Below are positions 3,001 through 61,026 of a stretch of DNA of 64,000 bases, one piece after another; position 1 is the stretch's first letter; every line of letters starts with the position of its first letter. Under the pieces are notes generated by a model. That model was not told the origin of the DNA. It saw only the letters and a list, made by a program, of their open reading frames with translations, and searched no databases. A program made the translations under genes and the position numbers. The stretch comes from a virus: IMG/VR virus record IMGVR_UViG_3300025137_000020, positions 41,337-105,336 of that record, one strand, 5' to 3'.

Positions 3001-3883
3001 GATTACCAGCAGTGACTGTAACAAGTTTATTATTAGCTGAGTTGACTTCTAATTCACTGACTACGGTCAGCTGACCATATTGATTATAAGTAATTTGTGG
3101 TACTAATACCTTTCTTATTTTACCAGATGTGTGGGTGTAAGCTTGAGCTTCTTCTTCATCTGATATTGCACCTTTGGTGGCTGCGGTAATTAAACTAGTA
3201 AGACCAACTTCGGCTGCACCACCATTATTAACAACACCATTTGTTACAGTAATATTTCCGCCAGAAGCACCAGCTAAAGTCTTTACGTAGTTTCCGTGAG
3301 TTTTAACTCCAAGCTCAAGTGAATAATCTTTTACCGTAACTTTACCACTAGAAGAGTCTATATCTAACGGCCCTTTCTTTTCGTTTCCTGCTCCTAGCTG
3401 GTCGTTTCCATCAGCTCCAAATGTTTGATTGGTGTTAGAAAGTATACCACCTAATTCATTATCTTTAGCTGTAAGCAGGTTGATTGTTCTATCGGCTTGC
3501 AGATTGCCCGTTCCGTCTAACCCTATTCCAGCTGTTATAACAATAGTATCCCAAGCTTTATTTGATAAGTCAGTAGCAATAGCAGATAAGTCTTCTGCAT
3601 GTTCGGTAAGATTAACATCTATTTCAGAAATATCACCATCATTCTTAGTAATTTGACTTTGATGACTTACAATTGCAGTATTAAAGTCTGATGCCAATTG
3701 ATTTAAATTCTTACGAAGTTCTTCAATCGTATTTGTATTTTTAACACCACCACTTGGGAATGCCGATAAATCAGCTGCGGAGTACGCGGCTGCATATGGA
3801 CTACTTAACGCAGTCGGCGAATCAGCAGAGATTGTTCTGGCAGTATATGCTGGAGATTGGTGTGTTTGAGTTCCTGTTGGCAT
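1..3883 (-). CDS. Long tail-fibre-like protein, 3' end runs off the window (>1290 aa)
   Basis: Absent from the ORF track because it has no stop in the window. ATG at 3883 gives MPTGTQ...TNTIEELRKNLNQLASD. The same frame was open wherever I checked it, including at position 2. It has repeated fibre motifs GKVGIGLTNPDAQLHL, GKVGIGGVTAPTALLDV, SIGIGVTTPAEALDVQG and RVGINLGTGVTPSSTLHV. Confidence 0.8.
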   Translation of the reverse strand, partial: MPTGTQTHQSPAYTARTISADSPTALSSPYAAAYSAADLSAFPSGGVKNTNTIEELRKNLNQLASDFNTAIVSHQSQITKNDGDISEIDVNLTEHAEDLSAIATDLSNKAWDTIVITAGIGLDGTGNLQADRTINLLTAKDNELGGILSNTNQTFGADGNDQLGAGNEKKGPLDIDSSSGKVTVKDYSLELGVKTHGNYVKTLAGASGGNITVTNGVVNNGGAAEVGLTSLITAATKGAISDEEEAQAYTHTSGKIRKVLVPQITYNQYGQLTVVSELEVNSANNKLVTVTAGNHLTDGGNFFLNNGVNQTVTLNHAAVSVQSDQTFTSSSPANSEVGHREVEILSNIGFDAYGHVDSISKQNLTYGLNSPLSSGYTGSSSFDMQIPRESDFQDLRTLFSQLQGDTISLGVAGNTVIVDRKFDFRKDVLISTGADLNVDDDTLFVDAGNDRVGINLGTGVTPSSTLHVGGTIKGVNDFFSDGTGTNGDPGDQNARFNGYGIQGHRDEAFYMSNAGTGSIKFGIGGIHGAATKMTLTSSGELSTTGSITAIGQIIAKSTNPSFKLFDTSNSPTGGDSTTTGYNQTNLTIGNDHTFEIQTRDGDGTFVSNDYRIEKDSTGSTEHQFKIANSNRLTITDSTTTVTGALTASSAVTGGSLLSTSSIVGLGNLEIGSTASNKLIYNPSNQRLSIGATSAYDVGFATAGIFLNSGTIGAFGTNTARKLILQSDALNVGGANIELYSGTWSEASQQNKAYYDASKHFFRKVDATHTALTIDSDNSFVGINATSADATVDLDGRTYGPYKFQVDGDAKLKGNVNITGNLNVTGISSTGSSATVEFNQVDLDEVGGISMNGIFTNTLTTDATSSADGGANTLSGGLAVTKKLYVGSNLHISGNIYADGTIQAANGNFDVDASGNISDVGSIVAGGTIRTTSHGGLVVDVADDGAAPLDTAVINLIGFEGRAAGIYIKDSLNSAVSANDREWFAGSGYLQSTFMLGYAADGIDTARPAQTKFVVDTDGKVGIGGVTAPTALLDVTDTTVGSAKVLVKTTGAGQAGYDLQNSEGHFRLITDAGVFRIYDQTDSKERLAIDTDGKVGIGLTNPDAQLHLKGDFENNIALKIEGTFGTGKSHYFRTHGNNSEDLALYSDSTRVMDWNSTEVESLVKFKVPTIESDSIGIGVTTPAEALDVQGTVRIRGTAGTFASSGDSSSYLNRKEYLQFPAIDKQAAGDGTDGARLYAENSKDSSATTNATDYGSLVLDLCDNSSGDHFVVRHTTGTTFRNNINTSYNRLGLMAR

Positions 3884-3889
3884 CTTTGT

Positions 3890-4105
3890 TTAACCTATTT
3901 TATTTATTAAATTTTTTACTAAATCTTTTAGTTCATTTACTTCAGCTCTTAAATTATTCATATTATTTTTTTCTTCTAGAATCCTCTGTTTCTTTATAAT
4001 ATACTTTTCGTAAGCTTCACTGTCTGTATTTATAATAGCTTTAGAGTAATTATTCCTAAGCAGTTTAGGATTATCCTTAATTTGATGAAAATTACAATCG
4101 CTCAT
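3890..4105 (-). CDS. Small conserved T4-like virion-region protein (71 aa, coiled-coil C-terminus)
   Basis: Likely start MSDCNF at 4105. The LLRNNYSKAIINTDSEAYEKY motif resembles the small gene following VrlC in marine T4-like phages. Confidence 0.65.
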   Translation of the reverse strand: MSDCNFHQIKDNPKLLRNNYSKAIINTDSEAYEKYIIKKQRILEEKNNMNNLRAEVNELKDLVKNLINKIG

Positions 4106-4106
4106 T

Positions 4107-7100
4107 TTATTGGGTTGCGATTGCTCTAAAGTTTTTAATCTCTGGTACAATAGCGCTATCTGCAGTTGTACCATCGGATGCCACAGACCTTAGTATAATT
4201 TTTATCTGAAATTTAGTAAATAGATTTATGTCATCAGAAGTTGATGTTCGAAAGTGTACTTCTCTGAAGTTCCCGCTGACTGGTATAGTTGCCGATTCTA
4301 ATTTAACGTATGCGCTTGATCCAGTGATGTCATCAAATCTAGCATACACATCTACATTACATTGTGGCAAAGGCCTTTTAATGTCCATATATACGTCTAG
4401 CCTATCCGCCGAGTTGTCTAAAACTACTGGCTTCGTGATATATCTTGCATCTGCATTGCCATGTGTCTCTCTAGTTTCATTAGTCAAATCATTGTCAATG
4501 TTATTCTTAATTGACAATAATGATAATCTTTGAACATCTAATTGTGGAGTTACGTATTTATTGTTAGACTTTAGCGTTGCTGTTAAAGCTAATCGATTTG
4601 CATATAAATCTACTGTAGAATGTAGATTTAGAACTCTACCCGGCGATATGGAATACGTTTCACCGGCTACAGTAAGACTATATGAAATCGAAGTTCCTGG
4701 TAGTTCAACTGAGTTACCTGCATTCAGATTAATCGCGTCACACTTTACTGGATTGCCCGAAGTCGTACCTGCAGGAAAAATTTTAGTAAATGAAGAATAT
4801 CCACATGTAGTAGATGTTTTAGTTACAGACGATCCGCTTTCAAAGAATTGCATATAATTGATTTTCATCTTGAAATCTTTATTTTGATCAGGCGTCCAAG
4901 TTGAAGCATTAGCTGATTTGAGAGATACACCAGTATAAGGATTCTTTGTAATTCTTTGAGAACCTGCTCCTACATCAATTCCACCAACTTCAGAATGCCA
5001 TAATGTCCAATCTGGCGAGTTACTCATTACTACGATAGCATATTCACTTCCGCCTTTGAGATGTACTGGAGAGTCAAACACAAACTTAGTGGCTAATGAA
5101 GCATTGGTTGGGTCGACTTCTGCAATTGTTTTAGTCCCCACCGCTGCAGCGGCAGCGAGAGTTGCAGAAGCTCCGGCATCAACTGCGGCTTGAGCATTTG
5201 GGTATCTTTCAACTCTACTAAATGGAATCATTTTTTGGGTTGGAATACCATTCTCTGTTGGTACCAAGTGTATTGAAACTGGTAATTTACTATGAGATTT
5301 AGCAAAGTATAAATCAATATCTTTTAGTGTTATGCCAGCTGGGTATAAATCTCCATCTATTAAGAAGGTTTGTGCAAGAGGGTCAACGTGTCTAATTCTG
5401 CCAGTAGCTGCTACCTGAGTAGTTGTTAATGTTCTATTTGATTCAACTCGTCTTTCGTCAATTGCGACTCTTCTTGTAGTTAAAACTTGCTCTTCAACTG
5501 TCTGCAATAGGCCTCTAGCTGCGTATGTAGCTTTAGCATATGTTGTAGCAGCAGTCAAATCATTATTAGAATCGTCTGAAAATATTACTTCTCTTTCACC
5601 AGTTCTAAATCTGAGCGCGTCGTTATTTGGAATAACCAAATAACCTGTCAATGTGCCAGCGTCATTACTCACTAAAGTGTCTGCTGAGATATCACCTGGA
5701 GAATCGTTAGTGTGGTCTTGACGGGTCGAATCGTCTCTAAATTCGACAAACGCAGTAGATTTAACATAACCACTAACATCAACGCCATCAAAGAACGGAT
5801 ATATTGTAGTGTTAGGTTTTAATCCGGTAGCTCTAAAATACACTCTCCTTGAACGGATAAATGGTACAAAAGATACATCAACAACTTTGTCTCCTAAACT
5901 TTCTCTAATTGTTTCGAGTTCAGCAAACTGTTGCATGCCGTCTCTAGTTTGAATAGTTGATGTAGTTCTCGCCTCTAGTTCAATCTGAGCGCGTCTTTGG
6001 TTTACTGCTGTTACAGTACCACCATTAAATGTTGGTACCTCTAAAGTGTTTCTATGCCCGCATCTGCAATTTCTAGTATGGGTTGTCCCGCCATGCTGCC
6101 TCATAATATTTGCGGTCGAGGTCATGTTATTCCAACCCAAACTCCTAGTTTCGGTTACTCCACTCCAAGTTGTGTTCCAATCGTTCCAACGAGTACCTTC
6201 TGATGCTAATTGTTCATTTACTAGATTTAAAATAGCTTCAGAATTACCATCTTGTGATATAATTACTTCTGGTCTGCGATTAGTATCTCTCCATTCATCA
6301 TTGTCAGGCGAGAGCTTAACTTCACCCACCCAAGATGCTACATCAAATGGATTAACACTTATTGCAACTGATGCGAATGGTTGGTCAATCAACGTACCGA
6401 TTGAGCTAGAATTTAATCTAATAATATCTTCTTGGCCGATTGGTGAAGGGTCATCCACTATGCCCCCGGTGGTTTTTAGTTTGTCGTCTGCTTTATTGCC
6501 GGCTCCTGGTGTCCCAAGAGTAATTCCGATATTGGTAGTACGAAATGATGGCCTTAAGATTCCTTTTTCAGGCTCTATTGATATTCTATAACCAGGGTCA
6601 CTCGGCATGCCGATTGCGTGACCTTTAAATTCATCGACCATAATTCCATGCTTAAATCTGTCAATGATAGTATCATCGTCAAGCACTTTTTGATCTTTTG
6701 TAATCTGCTCTAAAAGGGATAATGAAGAATAGTACTCTAAGTTCTTAACGCGTCGGTCAATCTTACCGATGTCTTTCATCGTATAACGACGATTGTCATG
6801 GTAACCTATCTCGATACCCTGTACGGAATTTGTGTAAGCTGGTACATCTAAATCATAGAGCAACATTGCGTTATCTGGTATAGATTGAGGACCATTTGCT
6901 TCTGTATCGCCTTCTAAATATTCAAACTCGCCATTTGTTTTTAAAACTATTCTGTCGTGTCGAGGAATAAAAAATTCAATATTACCAAACTCAATAATAC
7001 CATTGGGGTCAATAGAAACATTTGAGCCTCTAAAGTCAATCATATCTAATAAATGTCGACCGCTGAAATGTGATACCTCAGCTCTTTGAACATTGGTAGC

Positions 7101-46817: not shown

Positions 46818-47249
46818 CTATTTATAAAAGATGTGCCGTCCAATGACCGCGGTTTTTCTCATACTTTTAGTCCAATAAGGACTCTTAATATAATTAGCGT
46901 GATAGTGATCAGCTCCGTTAACATAATTGCTTTCTCTGCCCAATGCTCTTTTGGCGATTTCCCAACGAGGGTGTGACTTGGCTTTTGTGATTCCGTCTTC
47001 TACTGAAATTTCATTCCAACAAGAAAATTGTTTTCTCTGTAAACATACTTCCGCTGGAGTTAAATTTCTTTTCATTGCTCTATTCACTATCACCTCGTGA
47101 ACTGCTTCAATCGCGCCGACATAATATTCACCACCTGCTTCTAAGATGATAGTTGCAATAACTACATCTTGTTCATAAGTACTGCCCTCACAACTTTTGC
47201 AACCAATGATTGCAGCCATCATAACTAACCATGCTAATATAATCTTCAT
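46818..47249 (-). CDS. Cell-wall hydrolase, SleB/Hydrolase_2 family
   Basis: [39 protein letters not shown]; signal or lipobox-like N-terminus. Confidence 0.9.
46819..46826 (-). promoter_or_regulatory. Late promoter TATAAATA
   Basis: Exact consensus overlapping the hydrolase stop. Confidence 0.7.
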
Positions 47250-48385
47250 AATAAAATCTGTGTAATCTTTTCTGCTAAATCCTTAAACCATTCTACTCCA
47301 TGGCCTCGAGTTGTTTCAGCCGCGGTGCCGATACGAATACCACTTGTTTCAACAAACGATCTTTTATCATTAGGTACTCCATTCTTATTTACGGTGATGT
47401 CATTCTCTTCTAATAAGTCAGCGGCGTGTCTTCCGCTATAGGGTTTATCGCTTAGGTCGATTAGTACAATGTGAGAATCTGTACCTCCACACTGTACTTT
47501 AAATCCGTTCTTAATAAATACTTCAGCCATCGCTTTAGCATTATCTATAACTGCTTGAGCATAATATCTGAACTCTTTAGTGTCTGCCTCAACGAACGCT
47601 TGAGCTTTCCCTGCAACGATATTCATGAGTGGACCACCTTGAGTGCCAGGAAAGATTGCACTGTTAATCTTCTTTGAGTAAGATTCGTCGTTCCAAAGAA
47701 TAATACCACCTCGTGGACCTCTTAGAGTTTTGTGAGTAGTTGACGTAACAACATCAGCATAAGGCACAGGAGATGGATAAGCATTACCCGCAATCAAACC
47801 TGAGTAGTGAGCCATGTCGACTAAAAGATATGCCCCAACTCTATCAGCGATTTCTCTAAACGTTTTAAAGTCAATTACACCAGGATAAGCACTTGCTCCT
47901 GCAATAATCATTTTTGGTTTAACGTCTTCTGCTTGTTTTTGAATCGCATTATAATCTAAAAAGCCATTTTCATCTACACCATAGTGATGTGATTCGTATA
48001 CTTTACCAGATATATTCACTTTAGCTCCATGTGATAAGTGGCCACCACTCGCTAAATCCATTCCGAGAATCTTATCACCTGGCTTTAATAGCGCTTGATA
48101 GACCGCAGTGTTTGCATTAGCACCACAATGAGGTTGAACATTAGCAAACTTACACCCATAGATATCCTTTAGCTTTTCAATAGCAAAAGTTTCAATAGTA
48201 TCCATGTGTTCACAACCATTATAGTAACGCTTACCTGGATAACCTTCAGCATACTTATTTGTAAATATACTACCAGCTAATTCCATTACAGCATTACTAG
48301 CAAAGTTCTCACTCGCAATAAGTTCAATCGTCTTTGATTGGCGTAGCTGTTCTTGTACTAAAATTTCTTTAATTTCTTTGTTCAT
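47246..48385 (-). CDS. glyA: Serine hydroxymethyltransferase
   Basis: [43 protein letters not shown] (PLP lysine), GGP, SGIRIGT. Confidence 0.97.
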
Positions 48386-48389
48386 CGTT

Positions 48390-49847
48390 TTATCGTATCA
48401 TATTGTCCAAAAACTCGGTGTGGTCATCGGCCTGTAATAATAATTTATTAATAGTTTCTTTGTATTCTGATGGTGATGGACTTAATTGTTCATAGCCGTG
48501 GAGGTTAAATTTATTATTGTTAATTTCTATACCATTTATTACCTGTAAATATTGATAAAGACCAAAATCATCGTCGATGTTATAATCTAAGTTTCTTAGA
48601 TTATTTTCTTTAATATTGTCTAACATAGTTTGTAGTTTAGAAGGAATGGGGTAATCATCTCTGAAGTTTTTCCAAAATTTACTTGTATTTCTTTTTGTCA
48701 TATAATGAAGATACAGAAAATTCAAGACATCGTCCATCCTGTCTCCCATAATTTCATTAAACAGATCTAAACTTTTTTGATTAGGGTTCTCAGTCTCATT
48801 TATAAAATGTTTAAACGTTTCTAGTTGACCTATAGTCAACATTAAAGAAGTGGCTTCGAGAGGCTCTACAAAACCGGTAGATAAGCCTACAGCCATGCAG
48901 TTTTTTATCCATACGTTTTGCTGTCTACCTGCTTTGAATGGTATAACTTTTCTAACAGTCAAATCTCTTTTAAAATAATTTTGTGCCTCGTCAAGTGCTT
49001 GGTCTTCGTCAATATAATCGCTATCAAAAACATAACCAGAGCCTGTTCTATGTTGTAGCGGTATTTGCCATATCCACCCGTGATCTAGTGCTACGGCGGA
49101 TGTGTAAGGATTAATCTTTTCATCGCGATCAATCCAAAAGGCTATTGACTTCTTCATGGGCAGGTGTTTTGAATAAGAAATCCATTTTCCATTAAACACT
49201 TTATCTATAAGTAGTCTTGCAAAACCAGAACAATCGAAGGTAAAATCGACATCAAGTTTAATGCCATTAGTCAGATTAATATTTTTGATATAGCCGTTAT
49301 CTGATTTTTCTACATGACTAAAATCGCCAGTTACAACTTCAATACCTCTTTCTTCTCCTACCTCTTGTAAATATTTAGATAGGAGTTGTGCATCAAAGTG
49401 TAATGAATACGAGGTCTTACTTAAATCAATTAATTTTTTATACGACAATTTAGAAGTATAGATGTATTCATTGAAATCTAAACCGTTTTGCATTAAATGT
49501 TTAATATAATACTCTTCACACCCGCTGTGAAAAATATTTTTAATGCCAAAATTAGAAATTGTATCGCTAAAGCCATGGAAGTATTTTTTTCCATCACCAT
49601 TCCAGTTTTCAAAGGATATGCCATGTTTTATACTACCTTTTGTGTTTCTTAACACGGCGAATGGACAAATATCTAATTCGCGTAAGAAGTCAACTACGTT
49701 AGGGGTAGTGCCTTCGCCGACACCAATGGCTCCTATTGTTTCTCCTTGAACTAATTTAATGTTGGCTAAAGGAAATAGTTTTTTTATATACAGCGCAGTA
49801 AGCCAACCAGCGGTGCCTCCACCTAAAATGCAATAATTTTTCTTCAT
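48390..49847 (-). CDS. Flavin-dependent (tryptophan) halogenase family protein
   Basis: [43 protein letters not shown]. Confidence 0.92.
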
Positions 49848-50989: not shown

Positions 50990-51140
50990 AGATATCTTTT
51001 ATTTCTACTTTAATCAAATCTTCTTTTAACTCGTCTTTCAAAACTTCAATATAATGTTCGCATTCTTCTTTTGGCATATCAATTGTAGTTCTAGGATGAA
51101 GAGTTCTGCCGTCTTTCTTTCTTGTGTAAGTTACTATCAT
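50973..51140 (-). CDS. Small hypothetical protein (55 aa)
   Basis: ATGA overlap with the gp41 stop; MIVTYTRKKDGRTLHP... Confidence 0.55.
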   Translation of the reverse strand: MIVTYTRKKDGRTLHPRTTIDMPKEECEHYIEVLKDELKEDLIKVEIKDISTGQN

Positions 51141-52513
51141 ACCGTAAATGTGCTGAAGTCTTGAGTGTTAGAAGATGCCGATTCACCAATTGTATATTCG
51201 TGAACGTCTGGCATTATATCTTCTTGAGCACTTTCGTCTAATTCATATAATCTCATCTTTGGTCGGTCGATGCCAACTACGAAGCGTTTGTTCTTTGTTG
51301 GGTCATTGTAACGGTTCTTTAATTGTTTGAACATTACTTGATTCATACCTTCGAGTTGCTCGGTAGATATCATCGCCAACATTAAGTCAGCTGTTGCCGG
51401 CAAACCAAATGATTCTGAAGTATCAGTTAGTTCTACATCAGATGAATTAAATCCACCACGAGTGACTTGAGTCGCTGACCAAATAGGAACATTGAACTCT
51501 GCCGCCAAACCGCGGACTTCTTCGGCGATTGCTTTTACCATGTGATAAGTATTTACTGAACCACTAAGACCTTTGATTCGAGCTGAACCACAGATGTTTA
51601 GATAGTCGATGTAAATCATATCTGGCTTGAAGTCTTTCTTTAATTCTAGTTCATTCAATAGAGCACGGAAGTGACCAGTATGAGCTGATGCAGTTGGGTA
51701 CTCTTTGATAATCAATCGACCTCGAGTCTTTGCTTTGATCTTGTCAATGTGAGATTCGAATTGATTCTTACTTAGAGCATTCAATTGGTCAATCTCAACA
51801 TCCATAAGATTCGCATCAATACGTTCAGCGATTCTTTCTTCAGCCATCTCAAGAGTAATGTATAGAACATTCTTACCTTGGTCTAATGCGGCTGCAGCAA
51901 AGTGACACATCGCGAGAGATTTACCAACACCAGTTCCTGCAAGAATAATGTTCAATGTCTTCTTAGTGATACCACCATTGGTGATAGTATTGAGCATTGG
52001 TATGTCAAACGGAACCTTCTCTTCAACCCTATGATAGAAATCAAATCGGCCAGAGAAGTCTTCGATGTAATCGTGACCTACATTCCTGTCAAATGAAACT
52101 TGAAGAGCTTTCTGTAGTATATCAGGTATTGCTCCTGTATCTAGCTCTGGCTCTTTTCCGTCTATAATCTGAATAGACTTCATAATGCCAAGGAAGACTG
52201 ATCGCTCTTTACACCAAGCTTCAGTGTGTTCTAACATCCACTTATCGTCAATCTTCTCATCGACAATACAGTCATTAATAATATCAAGAACGTCTTGATT
52301 GTTTTCTGTATTCTTGGCGGAGTTTACGAACTCGACCTGAAGAGTTGATTTAGACGGTAATGAATTATAGTCTGTAATGAACTTTAGAATTAAGTCATAA
52401 GCAATTCTGTCTTGACCTTCAAAGTATTCGGGCTTTACAAATGGTAATGCTTTACGAGCAAAGTGCTCATCATTACATATCTTCTTTAATATCAGTCGTT
52501 GTATGTTTGTCAT
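51137..52513 (-). CDS. gp41: Replicative DNA helicase gp41
   Basis: Walker A AGTGVGKS, YITLEMAEERIAERID, IKEYPT, DYLNIC, SATQ, SESFGLPATAD, KNRY. Confidence 0.97.
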   Translation of the reverse strand: MTNIQRLILKKICNDEHFARKALPFVKPEYFEGQDRIAYDLILKFITDYNSLPSKSTLQVEFVNSAKNTENNQDVLDIINDCIVDEKIDDKWMLEHTEAWCKERSVFLGIMKSIQIIDGKEPELDTGAIPDILQKALQVSFDRNVGHDYIEDFSGRFDFYHRVEEKVPFDIPMLNTITNGGITKKTLNIILAGTGVGKSLAMCHFAAAALDQGKNVLYITLEMAEERIAERIDANLMDVEIDQLNALSKNQFESHIDKIKAKTRGRLIIKEYPTASAHTGHFRALLNELELKKDFKPDMIYIDYLNICGSARIKGLSGSVNTYHMVKAIAEEVRGLAAEFNVPIWSATQVTRGGFNSSDVELTDTSESFGLPATADLMLAMISTEQLEGMNQVMFKQLKNRYNDPTKNKRFVVGIDRPKMRLYELDESAQEDIMPDVHEYTIGESASSNTQDFSTFTV

Positions 52514-52799
52514 TATCTGCGAATTCTTCTTCCAATATGTATTTTAATATTCTACTAATGTAGTCTTTGAATTTTCTACTTTCTTTTAGCTCGTCTGCGG
52601 TATATCTATTACACCCTTTGTTAACAAAGAACTGAAATTCTAAGCCTAGTTGGTCATTACCTTTATCCTCTTTCAGCGATACTTTGCCATATGTAAAGAT
52701 TGTTCCTTTGAACCTGCCCTCTTTAAGGTTGATGGCATATAGTTCTTGAGAATCTTTTTCTACATAGCTAAATGAGTTACTAGTTATCTTCTTCTGCAT
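52473..52799 (-). CDS. Conserved protein between uvsX and gp41 (gene-40 position)
   Basis: G.FKG.I..YGKV; synteny. Confidence 0.65.
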   Translation of the reverse strand: MQKKITSNSFSYVEKDSQELYAINLKEGRFKGTIFTYGKVSLKEDKGNDQLGLEFQFFVNKGCNRYTADELKESRKFKDYISRILKYILEEEFADNDKHTTTDIKEDM

Positions 52800-53835
52800 C
52801 TTCTACTTCTTCGGTTATCATTTGAACATGGCCTACAGAGAACTTGTCTTTGATAGCTTTAGCTAAGTCTGTCTTAGCAAAGATACCAGACCAAAATTCT
52901 TCAGTCAATGTTTCTTTCATTCGTTTATTACCAGTTAGTTCTTCTCCTGTCGCAGGATTAACTGCTTGATACCAGCCAACCTTTGGCTTCTTAACGTATC
53001 CTAATTGAAGAGCAACATCTGTAAGACCAGACCATTGTGCGATACCGCCTTCCCAAGTTACTGAGATAGGAATCTTTGACTTCTCTCGTACGAAACGAGA
53101 TTTCTCAACATTGATTACGAAGTTGTAACCTTTGATTTCTGTACCTTCTTTTTCTTGTTGCCTTCCGATAATCCATACATTGTCGGCTGAGTACATAATA
53201 CCAGTACCGCCTGAAACAATAGCTTTAGGGAATAGACCAATTTCTTGATACGTGTGATTAACTGCAAGAAGCGGAATGTTTTTCATTGTAAGATAAGGAG
53301 TAACCATACGGAATAATCCTTTCAATGCTTTTGCACGAGTCATGTCCGCGACTGATTTTTCATTGATTGCATCATCAAGCTCTTTCTTCGAAGCAAGGTT
53401 ACCAACCGAATCAATCATAACAATCACTTTATCACCACGCTCAATTAATTCTAACTGACCAACTAAATCAAATTTAAGTTGCTCTACATTAGGAATTGGA
53501 GTGTGAAGAACTCTGTCTGTATCGATGCCGAAAGCTTCGAAGTAAGACTGAGGTGAACCGAACTCAGAATCATAGAAGAGCAATACTGCATCTTCGTGTT
53601 TCTTGAGATAAGCAGCAGCCATCAACAATCCAAATGATGTTTTGAAATGCTTTGATGGGCCAGCGAGAACCGTAAGACCAGATGTTAGACCACCATCGAT
53701 TGAACCCGATAGCGCTACATTAATCATTGGAACAGATGTTTGACATACATCTTTTTTTGAATACAGGGCTGACTTCGATAGAATATCAGTACCTGCGATT
53801 TTTGAGTTTTTCTTTAATTTATCTAATAGGGACAT
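52780..53835 (-). CDS. uvsX: RecA-like recombinase UvsX
   Basis: AGPSKHFKT, YDSEFG, DSVGNLASKKE, DMTRAK, NHTY, SGGTG. Confidence 0.97.
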   Translation of the reverse strand: MSLLDKLKKNSKIAGTDILSKSALYSKKDVCQTSVPMINVALSGSIDGGLTSGLTVLAGPSKHFKTSFGLLMAAAYLKKHEDAVLLFYDSEFGSPQSYFEAFGIDTDRVLHTPIPNVEQLKFDLVGQLELIERGDKVIVMIDSVGNLASKKELDDAINEKSVADMTRAKALKGLFRMVTPYLTMKNIPLLAVNHTYQEIGLFPKAIVSGGTGIMYSADNVWIIGRQQEKEGTEIKGYNFVINVEKSRFVREKSKIPISVTWEGGIAQWSGLTDVALQLGYVKKPKVGWYQAVNPATGEELTGNKRMKETLTEEFWSGIFAKTDLAKAIKDKFSVGHVQMITEEVEDAEEDN

Positions 53836-53896: not shown

Positions 53897-55090
53897 TTAT
53901 GCAAGGAATTGTTCTAAACTGTTCTCCTCAAGCTCGTGAGAAGTATTCGTATTGTTTTGTCTTATGAATTTAGTTTTCATAGTATCAAGCTTACCATCAA
54001 GATAGTCTTTAACTGACTGAGCCATATCTTGCGCAGTAGTAACTGGTACATTTTGACAAATCATATTGATGTTCTTCTTACCGCCAACTAATTGAAAGTC
54101 TTTCGGCATCCTCATAATTGACAGCGCTTCACGAATAGAAATGAATCTATCTTCGTCGGGGTGTATTAATGAAGTAGCAAAGTGTCCAACGAATGCTGAG
54201 GTATGACCTTTACCAAACTCAATTCCTCGTTTCATAATGTTTCCGCCTGCTTTATACTTAGCCTCAATTCTTAAACACTTAGCAGCTTCTTTATCAAATC
54301 CATTCGCAGTCATCCATTCAGCGACTTGCGGGTAAGGAATCTTTTTATCTTCAATATAGTTTAGGGTGTTAGTTGACTTCTCGATCTTAGCAAAGAACTC
54401 TTTATGGGTAATCCCGCCTTCGATTTCTTCAAGTATGTATCGATACCAAGGATCGTCACTCGGCTTCTTGTCATTAACCAATGCATTCATTGGGTCGTCA
54501 TCAGATACAAAAGCATTGCGAATTGTTTCTTCGATTGGCTCTTTCTCTTTACTAAAGTACGGCATATAAGGAACGTTCTCCGCGTTCCAAAAGAAGTAGA
54601 AAGAACGATTACGAACTTGACCTAATCCGTGAAGAGTCGACTTAGTCTTATAAAGAGTCATCGTATAACCATTATCGTCTGCAACCTTTCTGAGCTTCTC
54701 GACAACTGGCTTACCCATATTACCATAAAGACCAGGAGCATTCTCACCCCAAAAGACTTTTGGTTTAACCTCACTTAATACGTACTTAGCTGATTCGATC
54801 ATCCAATCATTCGCAGCGTTGTCAGCATTAGCATTTACATTTAACATTGAAAGACCAGCACATGGGCAAACTGAATTGACTACATCAACTTGGCCTCCGT
54901 GACTACCACCCTCATCCAATACATGATAAGGAACTTCGTTCTTGTAATGATTCAATAGCTGAGAATCATTCGCGCCGAAGGCTTTGTACGACATAATATA
55001 CTTTGGTCTTTTACCAAAGGCGTTTTGCATCGCGATTGTTTCTCCACCAATCAGTGGAATGATACTTGCATATGTATAATTATTTTCCAT
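53897..55090 (-). CDS. C5 cytosine methyltransferase-fold protein with an atypical motif I
   Basis: Motif IV PCAGLS, motif VI ENAPGL, motif VIII Q.R.RSF, HP.E.RFISIRE...P.DF, QNV.V; motif I is IIPLIGG rather than FxGxGG. Confidence 0.85.
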   Translation of the reverse strand: MENNYTYASIIPLIGGETIAMQNAFGKRPKYIMSYKAFGANDSQLLNHYKNEVPYHVLDEGGSHGGQVDVVNSVCPCAGLSMLNVNANADNAANDWMIESAKYVLSEVKPKVFWGENAPGLYGNMGKPVVEKLRKVADDNGYTMTLYKTKSTLHGLGQVRNRSFYFFWNAENVPYMPYFSKEKEPIEETIRNAFVSDDDPMNALVNDKKPSDDPWYRYILEEIEGGITHKEFFAKIEKSTNTLNYIEDKKIPYPQVAEWMTANGFDKEAAKCLRIEAKYKAGGNIMKRGIEFGKGHTSAFVGHFATSLIHPDEDRFISIREALSIMRMPKDFQLVGGKKNINMICQNVPVTTAQDMAQSVKDYLDGKLDTMKTKFIRQNNTNTSHELEENSLEQFLA

Positions 55091-55532
55091 TAGTTACTCT
55101 TTCTCTCAATTCACTGGTTGAAAAGGAATGCCGTCTTTTATTATAGTGGATATGGCATAACCCTTTCCCCGTGTGTTCTTTGTTTTTATATTCTTCTCCA
55201 CAGATTCTAATATCGGGGTTGATAGTTTGAATCATATCTTCTAAATCTTTTTCGCTTTCAAATGGTATTACTTCATCGACATACTGACAAGACGCAACCT
55301 GAACATATCTTTCAAAGATAGACTGAATAGGTTTGTTCTTTGTGTCGGGCCGATCCAGAGTTGGGTCTGTTAAAAGTCCTATAATTAAATAGTCACACAA
55401 TTGCTTTGACTCCTGTAGCATTACTACATGGCCTGCGTGCATTAAGTCAAATGACGATGCGGTGAAGCCAACTACTACTTCTTCAATTGGCTTATCTAGC
55501 TTCCGCGCTAGTTCTTTCTTATCAATAAACAT
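55080..55532 (-). CDS. Cytidylyltransferase-like nucleotidyltransferase (TagD/RfaE-II fold)
   Basis: FDLMHAGH (HxGH), KPIQSIFER, YVDEVIP, R.HSFSTSELR. Confidence 0.9.
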   Translation of the reverse strand: MFIDKKELARKLDKPIEEVVVGFTASSFDLMHAGHVVMLQESKQLCDYLIIGLLTDPTLDRPDTKNKPIQSIFERYVQVASCQYVDEVIPFESEKDLEDMIQTINPDIRICGEEYKNKEHTGKGLCHIHYNKRRHSFSTSELRERVTNGK

Positions 55533-56553
55533 CCTGTATTAATCCTATAATAAATTCTTTGTCGTGATGGTATTTTATCACTCGAGTCAATTCACACCGT
55601 ACTAAAATATTTATATCTTTAGCGCGGAGCTTATTGTAAGTGCATAATGTTCGTCTTGAAAGGTCAATCAATTCGGGCGTAACATTATTAATATAAAGGC
55701 TTGCAATAAACTTAGCGATGTCTAATTCAAGACAACCAAAGACATCGGGTATGGGGTCGATTAGAGTTAATCGATCATCGTCAAATAGTAGATTAGTTAA
55801 TCCAAAGTCTCCGTGAGCGAATGATTCTTCTGGCCATTCGATAAGTTTTAGTTCGTCAAATACTAACGCCCATAATACGTCTTGCTCTAGATCACACTCA
55901 TTGATATGTTTGCGGATTCTTTCTATGTACGTGGTAAAGTTATTTTGCTCTTGGTACTTTACCCTTTTGAATCGGTCTAAATTCTCTTGAATCATCGCCA
56001 ATGCACGATGAGGATGTCTAAAGAAGTACGTGTTGTCGTGGTTAATATATTCCATAGTCATAGTTTCACCTACGACTCTTTCTACATTAGGAACACTAGC
56101 GCCCGTCTTCTTTACTACTTCGAACCATTCATTCACCTCATGCGACCTAGCATCTGTCTTATGAACCAATCGGCCATCAGTATAAATGTCAGAGCCGGAA
56201 AGCCCGCCTTCTAGATTTCGTATATCAGTATCAATAAAATCTTCTGGTGATATACCTTTATCGTCTACATAGTATGCAGCTAATGGCTTATCAAACGAAA
56301 GACTGTTGTAATTTATATTGTGGTCAGATAGCCAACTCCTTATTTCTTCTCCATACTTCGCTTCAGCTTCTTCGCGAGTTTTGCAAGAGATAGAACCGCG
56401 GGCGGTGAAGATATCAATCTGCCAACCGTCTTTATAAAGTTTGTTTATCTTTTCGATTAGCGGTATATTTGGTTTAGCATCTTTAAATTTCCTGTTTACG
56501 GGAAATGCTAGTGTGTCGTCGAAATCTAATACTATACGTTTGTGATGTTTCAT
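55522..56553 (-). CDS. HAD phosphatase fused to an APH/choline-kinase-like phosphotransferase
   Basis: N-terminal DFDDTL, FTARG, KP.A.YYVDDK; C-terminal GGLSG, MEYI, HGDFGLTN, LIDP, DIAK. Confidence 0.85.
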   Translation of the reverse strand: MKHHKRIVLDFDDTLAFPVNRKFKDAKPNIPLIEKINKLYKDGWQIDIFTARGSISCKTREEAEAKYGEEIRSWLSDHNINYNSLSFDKPLAAYYVDDKGISPEDFIDTDIRNLEGGLSGSDIYTDGRLVHKTDARSHEVNEWFEVVKKTGASVPNVERVVGETMTMEYINHDNTYFFRHPHRALAMIQENLDRFKRVKYQEQNNFTTYIERIRKHINECDLEQDVLWALVFDELKLIEWPEESFAHGDFGLTNLLFDDDRLTLIDPIPDVFGCLELDIAKFIASLYINNVTPELIDLSRRTLCTYNKLRAKDINILVRCELTRVIKYHHDKEFIIGLIQDVY

Positions 56554-57953
56554 GCGAAAAATGATTCCAAAGAAGATGTTTCTTCTTCAGACTTTTGTTG
56601 TTTATTGTTTACTAAAATGTAATTTTCTCGTTTAAGATAAGAGCCGGGTGCAGTCATTATAACCTCACCCCTCTCACGTAAATCTTTTGCGGATGGAAAG
56701 AATTTATTTATGGCTTCTGCAGCATTGACTTTATTCTCTCTTTTGCCATGCATCAATATAGTCTCTAAGTACTTAGGCGCTAGATTGTCAATGTCGTTGA
56801 ACTTATAAATTAGTTCTCTGCAAGCTTCTCTCCTATCTACCCATTCATTTTTATTATGCCAAAGTCTATCGAGTTCTGCAGCCAAAGCTTCTTCTTGGTT
56901 AGCTTCTGCAGTAAGTGCGCAGTCATAATCAACCCATCTCTTACCTTCTGGCGAATAAGCGTTCTCTGCAAATTGTTTATTGAGTACGGGTAGAGTCAAT
57001 AGAAATGATTCGATCTGAGTGTATTCCATTCGTGTACCATATTCTCTTTCGTCTGTTAGTCGATAGCCACACCAAGAAGCAAACGATGCACCAAGAGTTT
57101 TCATACCCCAATCGTATGGATAAGATTCGTATGCATTTACGGTGACTTCTTCAATAGGCAACTTGCAATTGTGTTTGATATTACCGTCTTTATCAAATCG
57201 ATGTATACGAACAAAGTCTCTGAATGGTGGAATATATGGTCCAGGCCATCTGTGTAATTCTTTTTTGTCGTCAAAGGCTACTGAAGAAATCGATCTCTCG
57301 CAACCTACTAAAGATAATTGCCAATCGGCCATGTACTTACTTGAACGACAGATTAGTGCAGGGTCTTTTAATGGAGACATACGACCAATGTATAAAAAAT
57401 GTTTAATTGGTCCGTCAGTACGATATTTGTTATACGCGTTTGGTTCAATCCAAATAGGGTTTTCTATAATCCTATCTTTTAAACCTTCGTCGAAGTCTGT
57501 GTATGCTCTAGATGAAAGTCCGTCTTTAGATTGAAGAACTGCCACATCGGCATAAGAAAATAGTTCGCATGCCTGGGGAACTGAGTTGATAGTATTAACA
57601 GAGATGCCATGGTCGTGCATTACAACGATGGGGTCGTTTATCTTTTCAATAAATCGTCTGTATCTATCACAATAGTCTGTGTGTTTACGAATAGGAGCTG
57701 AGTGACAGATAAGTATATCACACTTATTAGCTACATCGATAATTCCTACTGAGGCATCTTGTTCTGAAGCTGTTACTTCTAGAACTTCACCTTTGAATTT
57801 GTTATCTTTAGCTCGGCCATATCGACCACCATTGATAAAATCAAATACAACGGAGTCATGGCCATTATCATATAACCACTTCTCAAAGAATAAAGCACCA
57901 CGAGTAACTCCACACCCATCGATACCTTTTCCAAAAACAAAACCTATTCTCAT
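56550..57953 (-). CDS. T4 alpha-glucosyltransferase-like DNA glycosyltransferase (GT-B)
   Basis: N-terminus MRIGFVFGKGIDGCGVTR mirrors T4 Agt (G(L/I)(E/D)GCGVT); HDH, YIGR...KDP, EYTQIE. Confidence 0.8.
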   Translation of the reverse strand: MRIGFVFGKGIDGCGVTRGALFFEKWLYDNGHDSVVFDFINGGRYGRAKDNKFKGEVLEVTASEQDASVGIIDVANKCDILICHSAPIRKHTDYCDRYRRFIEKINDPIVVMHDHGISVNTINSVPQACELFSYADVAVLQSKDGLSSRAYTDFDEGLKDRIIENPIWIEPNAYNKYRTDGPIKHFLYIGRMSPLKDPALICRSSKYMADWQLSLVGCERSISSVAFDDKKELHRWPGPYIPPFRDFVRIHRFDKDGNIKHNCKLPIEEVTVNAYESYPYDWGMKTLGASFASWCGYRLTDEREYGTRMEYTQIESFLLTLPVLNKQFAENAYSPEGKRWVDYDCALTAEANQEEALAAELDRLWHNKNEWVDRREACRELIYKFNDIDNLAPKYLETILMHGKRENKVNAAEAINKFFPSAKDLRERGEVIMTAPGSYLKRENYILVNNKQQKSEEETSSLESFFA

Positions 57954-58190: not shown

Positions 58191-58332
58191 ATTCTCTTAT
58201 TCTTATTCCGTGCTCATTAATATAATCTTTAGTTGGCACTCTTAGTTTTTTCTTACCACTTTTGACATCAGCTTCGAACTGAGCAGTTTTTTCTTCAAGT
58301 ATTTCTTGAATTCGTTTTTTAAGCGATGTCAT
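58171..58332 (-). CDS. Small hypothetical protein (53 aa)
   Basis: MTSLKKRIQEILEEK...; fills the gap. Confidence 0.45.
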   Translation of the reverse strand: MTSLKKRIQEILEEKTAQFEADVKSGKKKLRVPTKDYINEHGIRIREYAEVKK

Positions 58333-58945
58333 CTACTTCTGACCCGTGGTTTTTGTCTCTTAAATTATAGTGGTCATCAGCCATATAAGGGTTTTCATCC
58401 TCTAGTTCTTTATGGTGATGTAACGTTTGTGGCTCACCTAAATGCTCCGTTATAGTATCTTTATTCTGTCCGTTAGTATTCCATTGCCAATCGTGAAACA
58501 TATTATATTCATCAACTGCTATACCAACGTATTTCATTTGAGCTTTGCTGAAGTTGCACCCAGATTTCCAGTTTTTTCCGTGTATTTCAATGTCTGGCAT
58601 GACTACTCTAGCAACACCAATTTGAATTAATCCTTTAAAGCAATCTTCGCAGGCGGGTAATCCGTGAACATAAACAGTTGCTCCTTTAAGTGATACACCA
58701 TGTTGAGTTGCATTGTAGATCATATTCATTTCGGCATGAACCATCAACTTTAACTTAGCTTGTCTGTCAATTAATAAGTCATCATCATCTACTACACCTT
58801 TAGGAAATCCATTGTAACCTGTAGCAATGATTCGCTTATCACTAACTGCGATAGCACCCACTTGGGTTGAAGGGTCTTTCGACCACGTAGCAACTTCTTT
58901 TGCTATTTTTAAAAATCTGTAGTCCCACTTATTCATTTGTTTCAT
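58319..58945 (-). CDS. cd: dCMP deaminase
   Basis: WSKDPSTQVGA, GYNGFP, HAEMN, ACEDC zinc ligands. Confidence 0.93.
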   Translation of the reverse strand: MKQMNKWDYRFLKIAKEVATWSKDPSTQVGAIAVSDKRIIATGYNGFPKGVVDDDDLLIDRQAKLKLMVHAEMNMIYNATQHGVSLKGATVYVHGLPACEDCFKGLIQIGVARVVMPDIEIHGKNWKSGCNFSKAQMKYVGIAVDEYNMFHDWQWNTNGQNKDTITEHLGEPQTLHHHKELEDENPYMADDHYNLRDKNHGSEVDDIA

Positions 58946-59738
58946 CTGCTTCGATAGCTATTGCTTCTATTTCTTGTTGTTTAAGATCGTAAATGGTAAC
59001 AGGTATTTTCTGTCTTTCGGTTCCAACATGTATCATGTCATGCGATGGCTTATTATATTCTCCTGTTATGCAATTCAGTTTTATATTTTCTATAAACTTA
59101 TAATGTCTATCGTATACGTGTAACGAACCTACATTCCAATAGATTTCGCCTGGTTCGTATACGACATCTAAATCCAATAGAAGCTTGTCTCGTACGTGAG
59201 TCTGCCAAGCGAGGTCATTGTTGTAACCGAACACTGCATCGTTAGATCGCATATATACCGAGGTGATAAGTTTGCCATCACGAATGAAGTACTGAACATT
59301 GTTAGTACAAATAAAGTCAGACATATCATCAATCTTATAGTCTTGCCAAATAGATGGACGCGTGTAAATCATATTAGCACGACGAGAGTCTGGTGAAGTA
59401 TTTAGTTCGTGTAAAACTTCTTTATATTGGTTCCAATTGTCTTGAGAGTATGCAAGGTAGCCATAGTTAGAATTGATTACTCCCATGTTGCTCGCGGTAG
59501 CTTTCCATATTGCTGGGCATTCGCCTGGTATATCTTGAACCATTAATGATTGTGATTCATACCATTCAAGCTCGCGTTTGATGTAATCATAATTTGGTTT
59601 TCGTATAATGTATGGCTCATCAGCAACGAAACACGCATTAATAATCTCAATAGTGCTTGAGCCAGTTTTGTCGGCAACAAACTCTTTGTCTCTTAGTTTG
59701 TCTATAAACTGTTTTGTTATTTCTTTTACCTTTTGCAT
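58929..59738 (-). CDS. gp42: dCMP hydroxymethylase (T4 gp42-like thymidylate-synthase homologue)
   Basis: RELEWY, NSNYG, SRRA.MIYTRPS, DFICTN.VQY.IRD, MRSND.VFGYNND (Asp at the dCMP-specificity position), WNVGSLHVY.RH. Confidence 0.88.
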   Translation of the reverse strand: MQKVKEITKQFIDKLRDKEFVADKTGSSTIEIINACFVADEPYIIRKPNYDYIKRELEWYESQSLMVQDIPGECPAIWKATASNMGVINSNYGYLAYSQDNWNQYKEVLHELNTSPDSRRANMIYTRPSIWQDYKIDDMSDFICTNNVQYFIRDGKLITSVYMRSNDAVFGYNNDLAWQTHVRDKLLLDLDVVYEPGEIYWNVGSLHVYDRHYKFIENIKLNCITGEYNKPSHDMIHVGTERQKIPVTIYDLKQQEIEAIAIEADETNE

Positions 59739-59749
59739 AATTTAAATTC

Positions 59750-60301
59750 TTATTTTACAAGTTCTATATTACCAGAAATAATGGCTCTGTCAATACCAGA
59801 ATTGCTCGGCAATTGACAATGGAGTACATCTGAAGGCCACATGATAAACTTACCTTGCTTTGCGTCGACCACCCATTCGATGTCGCAATTTGGGTAAGAA
59901 TAATATCTAGTTCCCTGGTGGTTTTTTTCATCTATGTCTACATACCAAGCGAATGACCATCTGCTCATCATGGGCCCTTGGTCCCCGTGGTTGTGCGGAG
60001 CGTGCCATACGTTGTCTTTAGTTATTTGAGTCCACAGAGCCAAAAAATTCATATCAGATGCTCCTCTATCAGCAATAAACTCCGCGAAATTATGATTCAT
60101 ATATTTACGAAGCAAATTGAGCCATCCGTCAAAGAACACGGAAGGCTCTTCTTGGCCAAACTCGGTTCGGATGCCGTCTGGATTTGTGTTTAAACTTTCG
60201 CCAGCTTCATTTAGTGTTGAGTAATAGTCTTCAGGCGTTATGTCAGTGTCCCAAACATAGAACTCAATTGGTGGGAATGGTGTATACTTATTTGCTCCCA
60301 T
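59750..60301 (-). CDS. 2OG-Fe(II) oxygenase-like protein
   Basis: W....HAPHNH, WPS.V.H..P, R.IISGNI; start MGANK overlaps the upstream stop. Confidence 0.7.
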   Translation of the reverse strand: MGANKYTPFPPIEFYVWDTDITPEDYYSTLNEAGESLNTNPDGIRTEFGQEEPSVFFDGWLNLLRKYMNHNFAEFIADRGASDMNFLALWTQITKDNVWHAPHNHGDQGPMMSRWSFAWYVDIDEKNHQGTRYYSYPNCDIEWVVDAKQGKFIMWPSDVLHCQLPSNSGIDRAIISGNIELVK

Positions 60302-60656
60302 CGATATGCTTATTCGTTGAGGGTTCGCGGTTGAGAAAATCTTTAGAACCATCTTGGCCTTCAATGCCGTTGCGGCAATAGGCTGCAATAAAAGAGCTGT
60401 AATTGATTAGGTCTTTAGCCGAGTCTTCGATTGATTCGAAGTTTTGCTGGTACGACTCATCAGACTCCATTGCTTCAATGACTGAATACATACGAAGAAC
60501 TTTTGCGTATACAATATCTAATATCGTAAGAACACCACGTGGATAGTAGTCAGCTTGCTTAATACGCGAGTTAGGATTCTGGTAATCGTTTGATTTTTTA
60601 ATTTGTAGTTCGGCACACTCTTTAAGTACCTTTAGTGATTCTTTATCAATTGTCAT
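60288..60656 (-). CDS. Nucleotide-modification-associated all-alpha (MazG-like, DUF1599/Nmad1-type) protein
   Basis: KKSNDY, K..R, ESIEDS..DLINY. Confidence 0.7.
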   Translation of the reverse strand: MTIDKESLKVLKECAELQIKKSNDYQNPNSRIKQADYYPRGVLTILDIVYAKVLRMYSVIEAMESDESYQQNFESIEDSAKDLINYSSFIAAYCRNGIEGQDGSKDFLNREPSTNKHIDGSK

Positions 60657-60662
60657 AGTTAT

Positions 60663-60691
60663 ACTATACCTTATTTTTAGGCTTTTGTAAA
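60663..60691 (-). promoter_or_regulatory. Promoter TTTACA-17-TATAGT
   Basis: Upstream of the Nmad/oxygenase/gp42/cd genes. Confidence 0.7.
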
Positions 60692-61026
60692 TAATAAAAT
60701 TCAAGTAAAAACATCATACAGCATATTGCGTGAGCTGCATGGTGTACACCGGTTTCGGGGTCGAGCTTTTCATCTTTCATAAGAGCCCACATATGCCTTT
60801 GAGCAGCTGCAAAATAACGATCATCAATATTGTCAAGCTTTTTCCAATTGTGTCGATCGTACTTCTTTGCGCCGATGGTTAATACTTTTACCACGTCATC
60901 TAACGCGTTGGGTGGTATTAAAGAGTAGTCAGGCTTATCGTCATCAAATTTGATTCCGCCGTTTGCTGAATTCTTCTTCGCAAACTTAGCTTTCCTTTCC
61001 CACTCTTTTAGTTTTTCTTCTGTCAT
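60664..61026 (-). CDS. dATP/dGTP diphosphohydrolase-domain protein (DUF5664)
   Basis: G.KFD..KP.YSLIP, V..VLT.GA.KY...NW, AA.RH, D.ETG.HH.AHA.CC.MFL. Confidence 0.85.
   Translation of the reverse strand: MTEEKLKEWERKAKFAKKNSANGGIKFDDDKPDYSLIPPNALDDVVKVLTIGAKKYDRHNWKKLDNIDDRYFAAAQRHMWALMKDEKLDPETGVHHAAHAICCMMFLLEFYYLQKPKNKV

Follow-up and report, generated by a model that had tools for sequence, protein, structure and literature searches.

A virus-only family of cytosine C5-methyltransferase-like enzymes with a rebuilt donor pocket and a link to cytosine replacement in phages

Few DNA enzymes are understood as well as the C5-methyltransferases (C5-MTases), whose characterised members bind S-adenosylmethionine (SAM) or carboxy-S-adenosylmethionine (Cx-SAM) via the same motifs. 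What such an enzyme might accomplish in a phage whose cytosines are expected to be C5-substituted already is the question raised by a gene in the metagenomic virus record IMGVR_UViG_3300025137_000020 (IMG/VR). The window, that is the whole stretch of DNA analysed, comprises the right-hand 64 kb of this 105-kb record, which is 59% complete. The gene, called MT in the following, is located at 53897-55090 on the minus strand and encodes a protein of 397 amino acids (aa) to which the C5-cytosine-methyltransferase fold has been assigned by the Pfam family PF00145, an AlphaFold2 (AF2) model and fold matches. Sequence, predicted structure and gene context argue firmly for MT being a catalytically competent, phage-specific enzyme that attacks cytosine at C6 and possesses a donor pocket unlike that of any characterised C5-MTase, and equally firmly for its functional membership in the cytosine-replacement module.

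Fold, catalytic motifs and donor pocket

The initial annotation had described intact PC, EN and QxRxR motifs together with a SAM-binding motif I that reads IIPLIGG, and both observations were borne out by the sequence itself, by profile-profile alignment and by residue counts over the family. PF00145 (DNA_methylase) matches MT with 55 bits (E 8.5e-15) at profile positions 61-323 only, leaving the part that carries motifs I-III unmatched. The AF2 model, built on 96 relatives, reaches a predicted local distance difference test score (pLDDT) of 96, and by way of this model (residues 3-367) MT can be superimposed on M.HaeIII (1dct; Z 25.8) and M.HhaI (2uz4; Z 25.4) with a root-mean-square deviation of 3.0-3.1 Å across 277-291 residues. 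The two-domain C5-MTase fold is present in the model, with the Rossmann half displaying the normal strand-helix order, and DNA complexes of DNA MTases give the best structural matches.

On the catalytic side, motif IV with the catalytic cysteine (P76-C77; 54860-54865), motif VI (E116-N117-A118, canonically ENV; 54737-54745), motif VIII (Q158-V-R160-N-R162; 54605-54619) and motif IX (R315...R320-E321) are readily recognised, all on the minus strand as is every gene around MT. With these, MT appears to possess all residues for flipping of the cytosine, attack of Cys77 on C6 and N3 protonation (Glu116, Arg160, Arg162). Alignment of motifs IV-VI with HaeIII, HhaI, MET1 and canonical MTases places A78 opposite the Gln of PCQ, the position of Gln82 in HhaI, and A118 at the Val of ENV. 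Motif X (C345-Q346-N347-V348-P349, canonically GNxVP; 54044-54058) has kept Val-Pro and carries Gln346 instead of Asn; in the alignment with IGNAVP of HaeIII and GRMVP of the phage enzyme CmoX (8yf3), Q346 takes the position of N304 in HhaI and of R350 in CmoX. Compared with M.HhaI, M.HaeIII and Dcm, MT thus shares the entire fold and motifs IV (PC), VI (EN), VIII (QxRxR), IX (RxxxxRE) and the Val-Pro of motif X, and differs in a motif I of the type xPL(I/V)GG, the lack of a motif II acid and Ala, Ala and Gln for Gln82, the Val of ENV and Asn304.

The deviation is most pronounced in the N-terminal part, where canonical FxGxGG (motif I) and the motif II acid are both absent. Residues 10-16 (I10-I11-P12-L13-I14-G15-G16; 55043-55063, minus strand) stand in place of the canonical LFxGxGG: a profile-profile alignment with hhalign of 96 family members versus 57 canonical MTases plus Dcm set IIPLIGG on LFAGAGG with a probability of 99.7%, with F changed to I, A to P and the first G to L. 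The canonical profile was needed for this assignment, as hhalign versus Dcm alone left the N-terminus of MT unaligned, and with the family profile residues 1-64 found no counterpart in any solved MTase. The motif II acid position corresponds to N41 according to hhalign and to S34 according to the strand ends of the AF2 model, and neither position holds Asp or Glu in any of the 96 relatives. The view of the initial annotation that the SAM motif I is altered was therefore correct, and the alteration is conserved family-wide; to call the motif broken goes too far, since MT has kept its Rossmann architecture as well as the G-G pair in motif I, so that a nucleotide-type cofactor of some sort may still be bound.

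The residue counts, performed on 96 diverse family members with a mean identity of 29%, identify this pocket as a shared property. Invariant in 96/96 relatives are P12, L13, G15, G16, C77, S81, E116, R160, R162 and Q346, followed by Q158 (95/96), A118 (94/96) and A78 (85/96, the others having Ser or Gly). Position 34 is Ser in 86 and Thr in 8 members, position 35 is aromatic in 92, and position 41 is Asn in 90 and His in 6. FxGxG or a motif II acid is found in 0/96, and to our knowledge every characterised C5-MTase has kept both. The target recognition domain (TRD) of MT, largely helical, is conserved throughout the family and not diversified. On these counts, the pocket change is to be read as a family signature and not as decay; a decayed pseudo-enzyme is ruled out by the invariant catalytic and pocket residues. 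Judged from the alignments, the rebuilding also reaches past motif I to those positions which shape the transferred group (HhaI Q82 and N304; CmoX R350). In M.HhaI the transferable group has Gln82 and Asn304 on its two sides, and methyl transfer drops approximately 16-fold in the Q82A mutant (PMC3526304).

That such a pocket can be re-tooled in nature has a precedent in CmoX of Synechococcus phage S-B43 (8yf3), the top match of MT among PDB sequences (E 2e-7). CmoX is a phage DNA cytosine C5-carboxymethyltransferase that uses Cx-SAM rather than SAM as the donor, with Arg350 at the Asn304 position binding the Cx-SAM carboxyl and Ser as the residue after Cys (PMC12783734). MT resembles CmoX in having a small residue for the motif IV Gln and in the replacement of the motif X Asn. 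Unlike MT, CmoX keeps the adenosine contacts (Phe25, Glu47, Phe48, Asp69), has SPPC and Arg350 and accompanies CmoA, whereas MT has CPCA, Gln346 and rebuilt motifs I and II. CmoA was not found in 8 records with family members, including 4 complete genomes, in a search where the E. coli positive control matched, and in the record of MT itself the CmoA model TIGR00740 gave only a 15-bit match interrupted by 4 stops. A CmoX-type carboxymethylase is rejected, with neither SPPC nor the Arg in MT and no CmoA in the records searched, and the MT family looks to be a re-tooling different from that of CmoX.

Recurrent linkage to dCMP-modifying synthases

The MT family is large and confined to viruses. 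Relatives amount to 2537 at E<=1e-5 in one database and to 980 cluster representatives, 258 of them at E<=1e-30, in another; ESM-Atlas clusters of the family are 100% viral, and 13/13 family members in metagenome-assembled genomes of prokaryotes are surrounded by genes of T4-like phages. Among isolate genomes a single copy was found, in Victivallis vadensis DSM 14823 (NZ_QEKH01000007; L311, ~2960-4229); it resides in a lambda-like prophage with terminase, portal and capsid genes and is frameshifted just after IIPLIG, with the N-terminal 12 residues in another frame; a gp42 homologue was not found near this prophage copy.

The genes around MT are those of cytosine replacement, above all a homologue of thymidylate synthase (TS) with Asp at the position of ThyA residue 177, which confers dCMP specificity. 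The close clade of 80 viral loci (54-87% identity) shows throughout the order gp42-dCMP deaminase-[variable cassette]-MT-UvsX-gp41, with the synthase present in 17/17 loci of at least 15 kb. A second clade (32-35% identity), which includes the cultured Pseudoalteromonas phage vB_Psh_XG4, has the synthase in 23/24 loci of at least 15 kb and shows the order gp43 ... gp42-deaminase-NTP-transferase/kinase-glycosyltransferase-(glycosyltransferase)-MT. In a diverse set (24-33% identity), mostly jumbo-phage contigs, the synthase is located no more than 10 kb away in 15/45 long loci; when 15 whole records of this set were searched, it was identified elsewhere in 9, including 7/7 records of at least 50% completeness. 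In many jumbo phages, MT is located far from gp42 and the glycosyltransferase (GT). Finally, in the S-TIM5 cyanophages MT adjoins a gene annotated as 'ThyA' that bears Asp at position 177. In S-TIM54 (OP053362; L003, 6126-6968) this 'ThyA' carries Asp at 177 and Cys at 143 in E. coli ThyA numbering and probably modifies dCMP, as a methylase or hydroxymethylase, instead of making thymidylate; it adjoins both the MT homologue and a 560-aa protein that found no match in Pfam and PHROG.

Among 119 TS-family open reading frames (ORFs) from related loci, Asp177 is present in 116, with a hydroxymethylase signature in 111 and the signature of a 5-hydroxy-dCMP (5hoC) synthase in 2. The three ORFs with Asn177, the true ThyA type, have MT also in the locus and in 2/3 cases a gp42-type synthase too. 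Asn at ThyA position 169 has been described as the mark of 5hoC synthases (PMC13326640, 2026), and Asp169Asn homologues were observed in two MT-bearing jumbo-phage records, one of which (G005) contains hmC-type and 5hoC-type enzymes together (hmC, 5-hydroxymethylcytosine). Equally, some phages contain two MT paralogues: in one locus (L146; 1255-2560 and 8737-10000) they bracket a GT/NTP-transferase-kinase cassette adjoining gp42, and in a second case the two are found in one record.

In control loci the association is lacking. A TS homologue is nearby in 0/64 loci of canonical C5-MTases (FAGAGG, PCQ, ENV, GNAVP) from prokaryote genomes and in 0/42 Dcm-like loci, the latter being a weak control as it consists mostly of chromosomal dcm at provirus edges, so that the 64 prokaryote-genome loci are the better one. 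Homologues independent of gp42 and Agt, which the initial annotation had named as the finding that would point to a conventional enzyme, are thus not what the survey returned. The link between MT and the synthase, as judged from gene neighbourhoods, recurs in at least four lineages. Unlike canonical MTases, the family is virus-only and tied to dCMP-modifying enzymes and not to restriction enzymes. The GT cassette beside MT is hypervariable (AGT, TAGT, GT-B, epimerase, aminotransferase or none), whereas MT is conserved.

Four relatives on short contigs carry long C-terminal extensions (total lengths of 598, 653, 768 and 1462 aa) and may be eukaryotic or giant-virus forms. Pfam recognises a CXXC zinc finger (PF02008) at the C-terminus of the 598-aa protein and nothing in the remaining three extensions.

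The modification locus and its replication context

Whether the genome replaces its cytosines was addressed with the genes upstream of MT. The gp42-type dCMP hydroxymethylase, a thymidylate synthase homologue (58929-59738, minus strand), matches the T4 enzyme (1b49) with E 5e-76 and 57% identity and has Asp at ThyA positions 177, 169 and 143 (signature DCDD); with Asp169 it is therefore of the hydroxymethyl type. A dCMP deaminase (58319-58945) and an AGT-like DNA GT (56550-57953; phrog_2888, E 2e-30; PF11440, 24 bits) are encoded next to it. A gp56-type dCTPase and the gp1 dNMP kinase were not found by tblastn and PF08761 in the 59%-complete record, in a search in which T4 gp56 itself scored only 23 bits. 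T4 gp43, gp44, gp45, gp56 and gp62 were equally not found in the incomplete record, and their counterparts are probably located beyond the contig end because the contig stops soon after a primase-like ORF. That the cytosines are already C5-substituted, as presumed at the outset, is consequently well supported by the gp42 signature and the AGT-like GT as far as the making of hmC is concerned; replacement of all cytosines is a more tentative premise, gp56 and gp1 having no match.

A MazG-like NTP pyrophosphohydrolase (60664-61026; PF18909, 115 bits) is encoded close to gp42 and adjoins gp42 in many related loci. In several clades without a recognisable gp56 the PF18909 gene is immediately upstream of gp42 (16 loci), and the MazG-like enzyme is a candidate for the removal of dCTP in place of the T4 dCTPase. 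Further away, a serine hydroxymethyltransferase (SHMT; PF00464, 509 bits; 47246-48385, minus strand), which would supply methylene-tetrahydrofolate (methylene-THF) to gp42, has directly upstream a full-length protein of the flavin-dependent tryptophan-halogenase family (PF04820, 375 bits; 48390-49847, minus strand).

Between gp42 and the recombination genes, GT is followed by an ORF with HAD phosphatase-like and APH-type kinase parts (55522-56553), a cytidylyltransferase-like nucleotidyltransferase (55080-55532; PF01467, with phrog_7878 heptose-1-P adenylyltransferase-like) and MT, with overlaps of 4, 11 and 11 nt, the last being that of the nucleotidyltransferase stop with the MT start. Good sigma-70-like matches are present only before GT (58008-57980; 11/12 with an extended -10, a consensus match only) and before uvsX (53891-53863), and because of this distribution the GT-kinase-nucleotidyltransferase-MT genes look like a single unit with MT as its final gene. 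Downstream follow UvsX recombinase (52780-53835), the conserved neighbour of MT, an ORF at the gp40 position (52473-52799) and gp41 helicase (51137-52513). As the T4 order is 41-40-uvsX-segA-beta-gt-42, the four-gene unit occupies the slot of the T4 hmC glucosyltransferase. The locus accordingly resembles the T4 hmC module in the order 41-40-uvsX-[modification slot]-42 and in the gp42 orthologue, and differs in that T4 is without a C5-MTase-like gene and the slot contains an NDP-sugar (nucleoside diphosphate sugar) cassette, an AGT-like GT and MT. A phage record that matches the MT region was not found by megablast, and tblastn returned 8 records only.

Another route to glycosylated 5-substituted cytosine is known from the C5-MT/TET(5mYOX)/GT systems, where the hydroxymethyl group arises after replication by methylation and TET oxidation (PMC8256090; bioRxiv 2023.12.21.572611). 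The present locus is similar in that a C5-MT-type gene adjoins DNA GTs, including TAGT-family enzymes in related loci, and in the type of end product, and is different in that a gp42-type synthase supplies the hydroxymethyl group before replication. Tet_JBP (PF12851) was not found in the record of MT or in the 8 family-bearing records named above, in a search in which no positive control matched either. A 2-oxoglutarate (2OG)-Fe(II) oxygenase is encoded between the MazG-like gene and gp42 (59750-60388; phrog_81, sub-threshold generic Pfam 2OG matches), was recovered by jackhmmer in just 2 fetched related loci and has a single-sequence AF2 pLDDT of 31. The pathway from MT via TET to GT is disfavoured, with no TET match in these searches and a 2OG gene that is not conserved.

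A connection of MT with replication is suggested by its C-terminus, SLEQFLA (53900-53920, minus strand), which is like the clamp-binding tail of DNA polymerases. T4 gp43 attaches to the gp45 clamp via such a C-terminal tail. GT ends in SLESFFA (56553-56573, minus strand), gp43 of related loci in TLESFFV, SLDEFFA, SIEDFFG, TLEEFFA and similar, MT orthologues in QLDQFMV, TLESFI and LQLTEFML, and TAGT- or AGT-type GTs of the slot in SLEDFF and GLEEFFA. In the entire 105-kb record, only three ORFs have such an end, clearly so MT and GT, with the halogenase-like ORF a loose match to the regular expression. A tail of the form (S/T)L(E/D)xF(F/L/M)x common to the polymerase, MT and three GT families (AGT-like, TAGT PF20691 and AGT PF11440) was observed in this locus and six related ones. 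From the motif we infer that MT and GT are clamp clients on nascent phage DNA, and the recurrence of the tail suggests a group of clamp-recruited DNA-modifying enzymes. A complex prediction that paired the gp45 clamp of a related phage (L253) with the last 54 residues of the MT belonging to that phage (L068) scored 0.08 with the mark at 0.32 and counts neither way. The eukaryotic DNMT1-PCNA pair, where a cytosine-C5 enzyme has a short clamp-binding peptide, offers an analogy: MT likewise possesses a short clamp-type peptide that would couple modification to replication, but the MT peptide is C-terminal and of the T4 type, and the likeness is read from the motif. As a separate observation, the gp41 helicase homologues of this locus and of six others exhibit another conserved C-terminal motif (DFSTFTV, DFSAFKI, KFESFKL, FGDFKL), which may be another docking peptide.

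Possible roles of MT and their meaning

The initial annotation had offered two options, a back-up for partial replacement and a repurposed enzyme, and sequence analysis decides for neither. The reading that we favour, with a rough probability of 0.4, is that MT, using its non-canonical donor pocket, modifies cytosines in freshly replicated phage DNA that have escaped replacement. By its polymerase-like tail, MT would ride the sliding clamp and scan the new phage DNA, giving leftover C5-H cytosines a substituent at C5 and leaving nucleases of the host or of the phage itself without plain cytosine to act on. The donor might be SAM held differently, which would give 5-methylcytosine (5mC), or methylene-THF or formaldehyde, which would give hmC that the neighbouring GT could glycosylate; a non-SAM one-carbon donor is conceivable because Leu13 stands where a glycine usually leaves space for the cofactor. 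The conservation of MT next to a variable GT cassette fits a substrate that is independent of the sugar, and its occurrence with 5hoC-type (D169N) and ThyA-like Asp177 synthases fits a role generic to cytosine replacement. The one relative fused to a CXXC zinc finger, a domain that binds unmethylated CpG, has been counted for the modification of leftover cytosines. Several points weigh against this reading. No such enzyme is needed by T4 and its enteric relatives; a SAM-dependent reaction to 5mC would provide no evident reason for rebuilding motifs I and II and the positions of Q82, V121 and N304; the small residues A78 and A118 beside C5 could equally suit a bulkier 5-substituted base; clamp binding is a reading of the motif only; and the jumbo-phage members of the family are without the tail. 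That MT even performs a DNA chemistry not described before, either as a post-replicative C5-hydroxymethylase with methylene-THF or formaldehyde or as an hmC-exchange enzyme, delivered by the clamp in the T4-like clades, we consider possible, if somewhat unlikely.

The most serious competitor, although unlikely, is action of MT on hmC itself. Cys77 would add to C6 of hmC or its glycoside, the oxygen of the 5-CH2-O group would leave, and a nucleophile would add to the resulting exocyclic methylene, with a new 5-(X-methyl)cytosine as the product, or else with the group exchanged or removed. Since C5 is occupied, complete replacement would leave a C5-transferase without its normal substrate, and this proposal makes good use of the apparent transcription unit which MT shares with the genes of hmC glycosylation, of the smaller residues near C5 (A78 for Gln, A118 for Val) and of the rebuilt SAM half, in which Leu replaces the first glycine of motif I and motif II lacks its acid. 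Thiols have reportedly been coupled to hmC in vitro by C5-MTases (Liutkeviciute et al.). Canonical C5-MTases can bind 5hmC DNA covalently, and loss of the hydroxymethyl group is possible (PMC11347137), which speaks in its favour as well. Against it, MT is conserved while sugars and GT types vary or are missing from the slot, is distant from gp42 and GT in many jumbo phages and is partnered with 5hoC-type synthases and the S-TIM5 ThyA-like Asp177 enzyme, where the 5-substituent may not be hydroxymethyl. Moreover, the pocket residues of MT do not co-vary with the synthase type, and a conserved partner supplying the nucleophile was not seen.

More improbable still is an ordinary SAM-dependent, sequence-specific 5mC MTase that serves anti-restriction and has no tie to hmC beyond inherited synteny. 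The complete C5-MTase fold with all catalytic motifs, Rossmann strands in their usual order and a preserved G-G in motif I would agree with such an enzyme, class I methyltransferases tolerate varied motif I sequences, and orphan MTases are frequent in phages. Inherited synteny is difficult to reconcile with a link to Asp177-type TS that recurs at just 25-35% identity and in varied gene orders, and a free-standing methylase for restriction evasion is disfavoured because the homologues are tied to dCMP-specific TS homologues and canonical loci, in both control sets, are not. Equally, the TRD is conserved instead of diversified, FxGxG and the motif II acid never occur in the family, and a fully hmC-containing genome would leave nothing to methylate. 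Least probable is a task elsewhere or without catalysis, such as the marking or trapping of unmodified host or superinfecting DNA, action on RNA or service as a cytosine-sensing subunit, for which plain cytosine as the feature that distinguishes host DNA during infection by a C-replacing phage and the action of the Dnmt2 fold on RNA provide a rationale, and against which stand Cys, Glu and both Arg in all 96 relatives, which argues for catalysis, the polymerase-like tail, which points to the clamp and nascent DNA of the phage itself, and the DNA-bound DNA MTases as top fold matches.

MT belongs to a large virus-only branch of the C5-MTases that retains the apparatus of covalent catalysis, has its donor pocket rebuilt in a single fixed manner, counts thousands of metagenomic sequences and is nearly confined to cytosine-replacing phages. 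Literature searches found no publications on this branch, just as none were found on DNA modification in S-TIM5. If the tails truly bind the clamp, phages would possess a parallel to replication-coupled DNMT1. Direct testing is feasible, since Pseudoalteromonas phage vB_Psh_XG4 and the S-TIM5 cyanophages are carriers available in culture. A new base modification could emerge from the family, or a tool enzyme of the kind that engineered Q82A/N304A MTases and CmoX already represent in the labelling and sequencing of DNA. In marine T4-like and jumbo phages, MT apparently represents an unrecognised, near-obligatory step of cytosine replacement, which may consist in mopping up leftover cytosines, in setting a second mark or in editing hmC.

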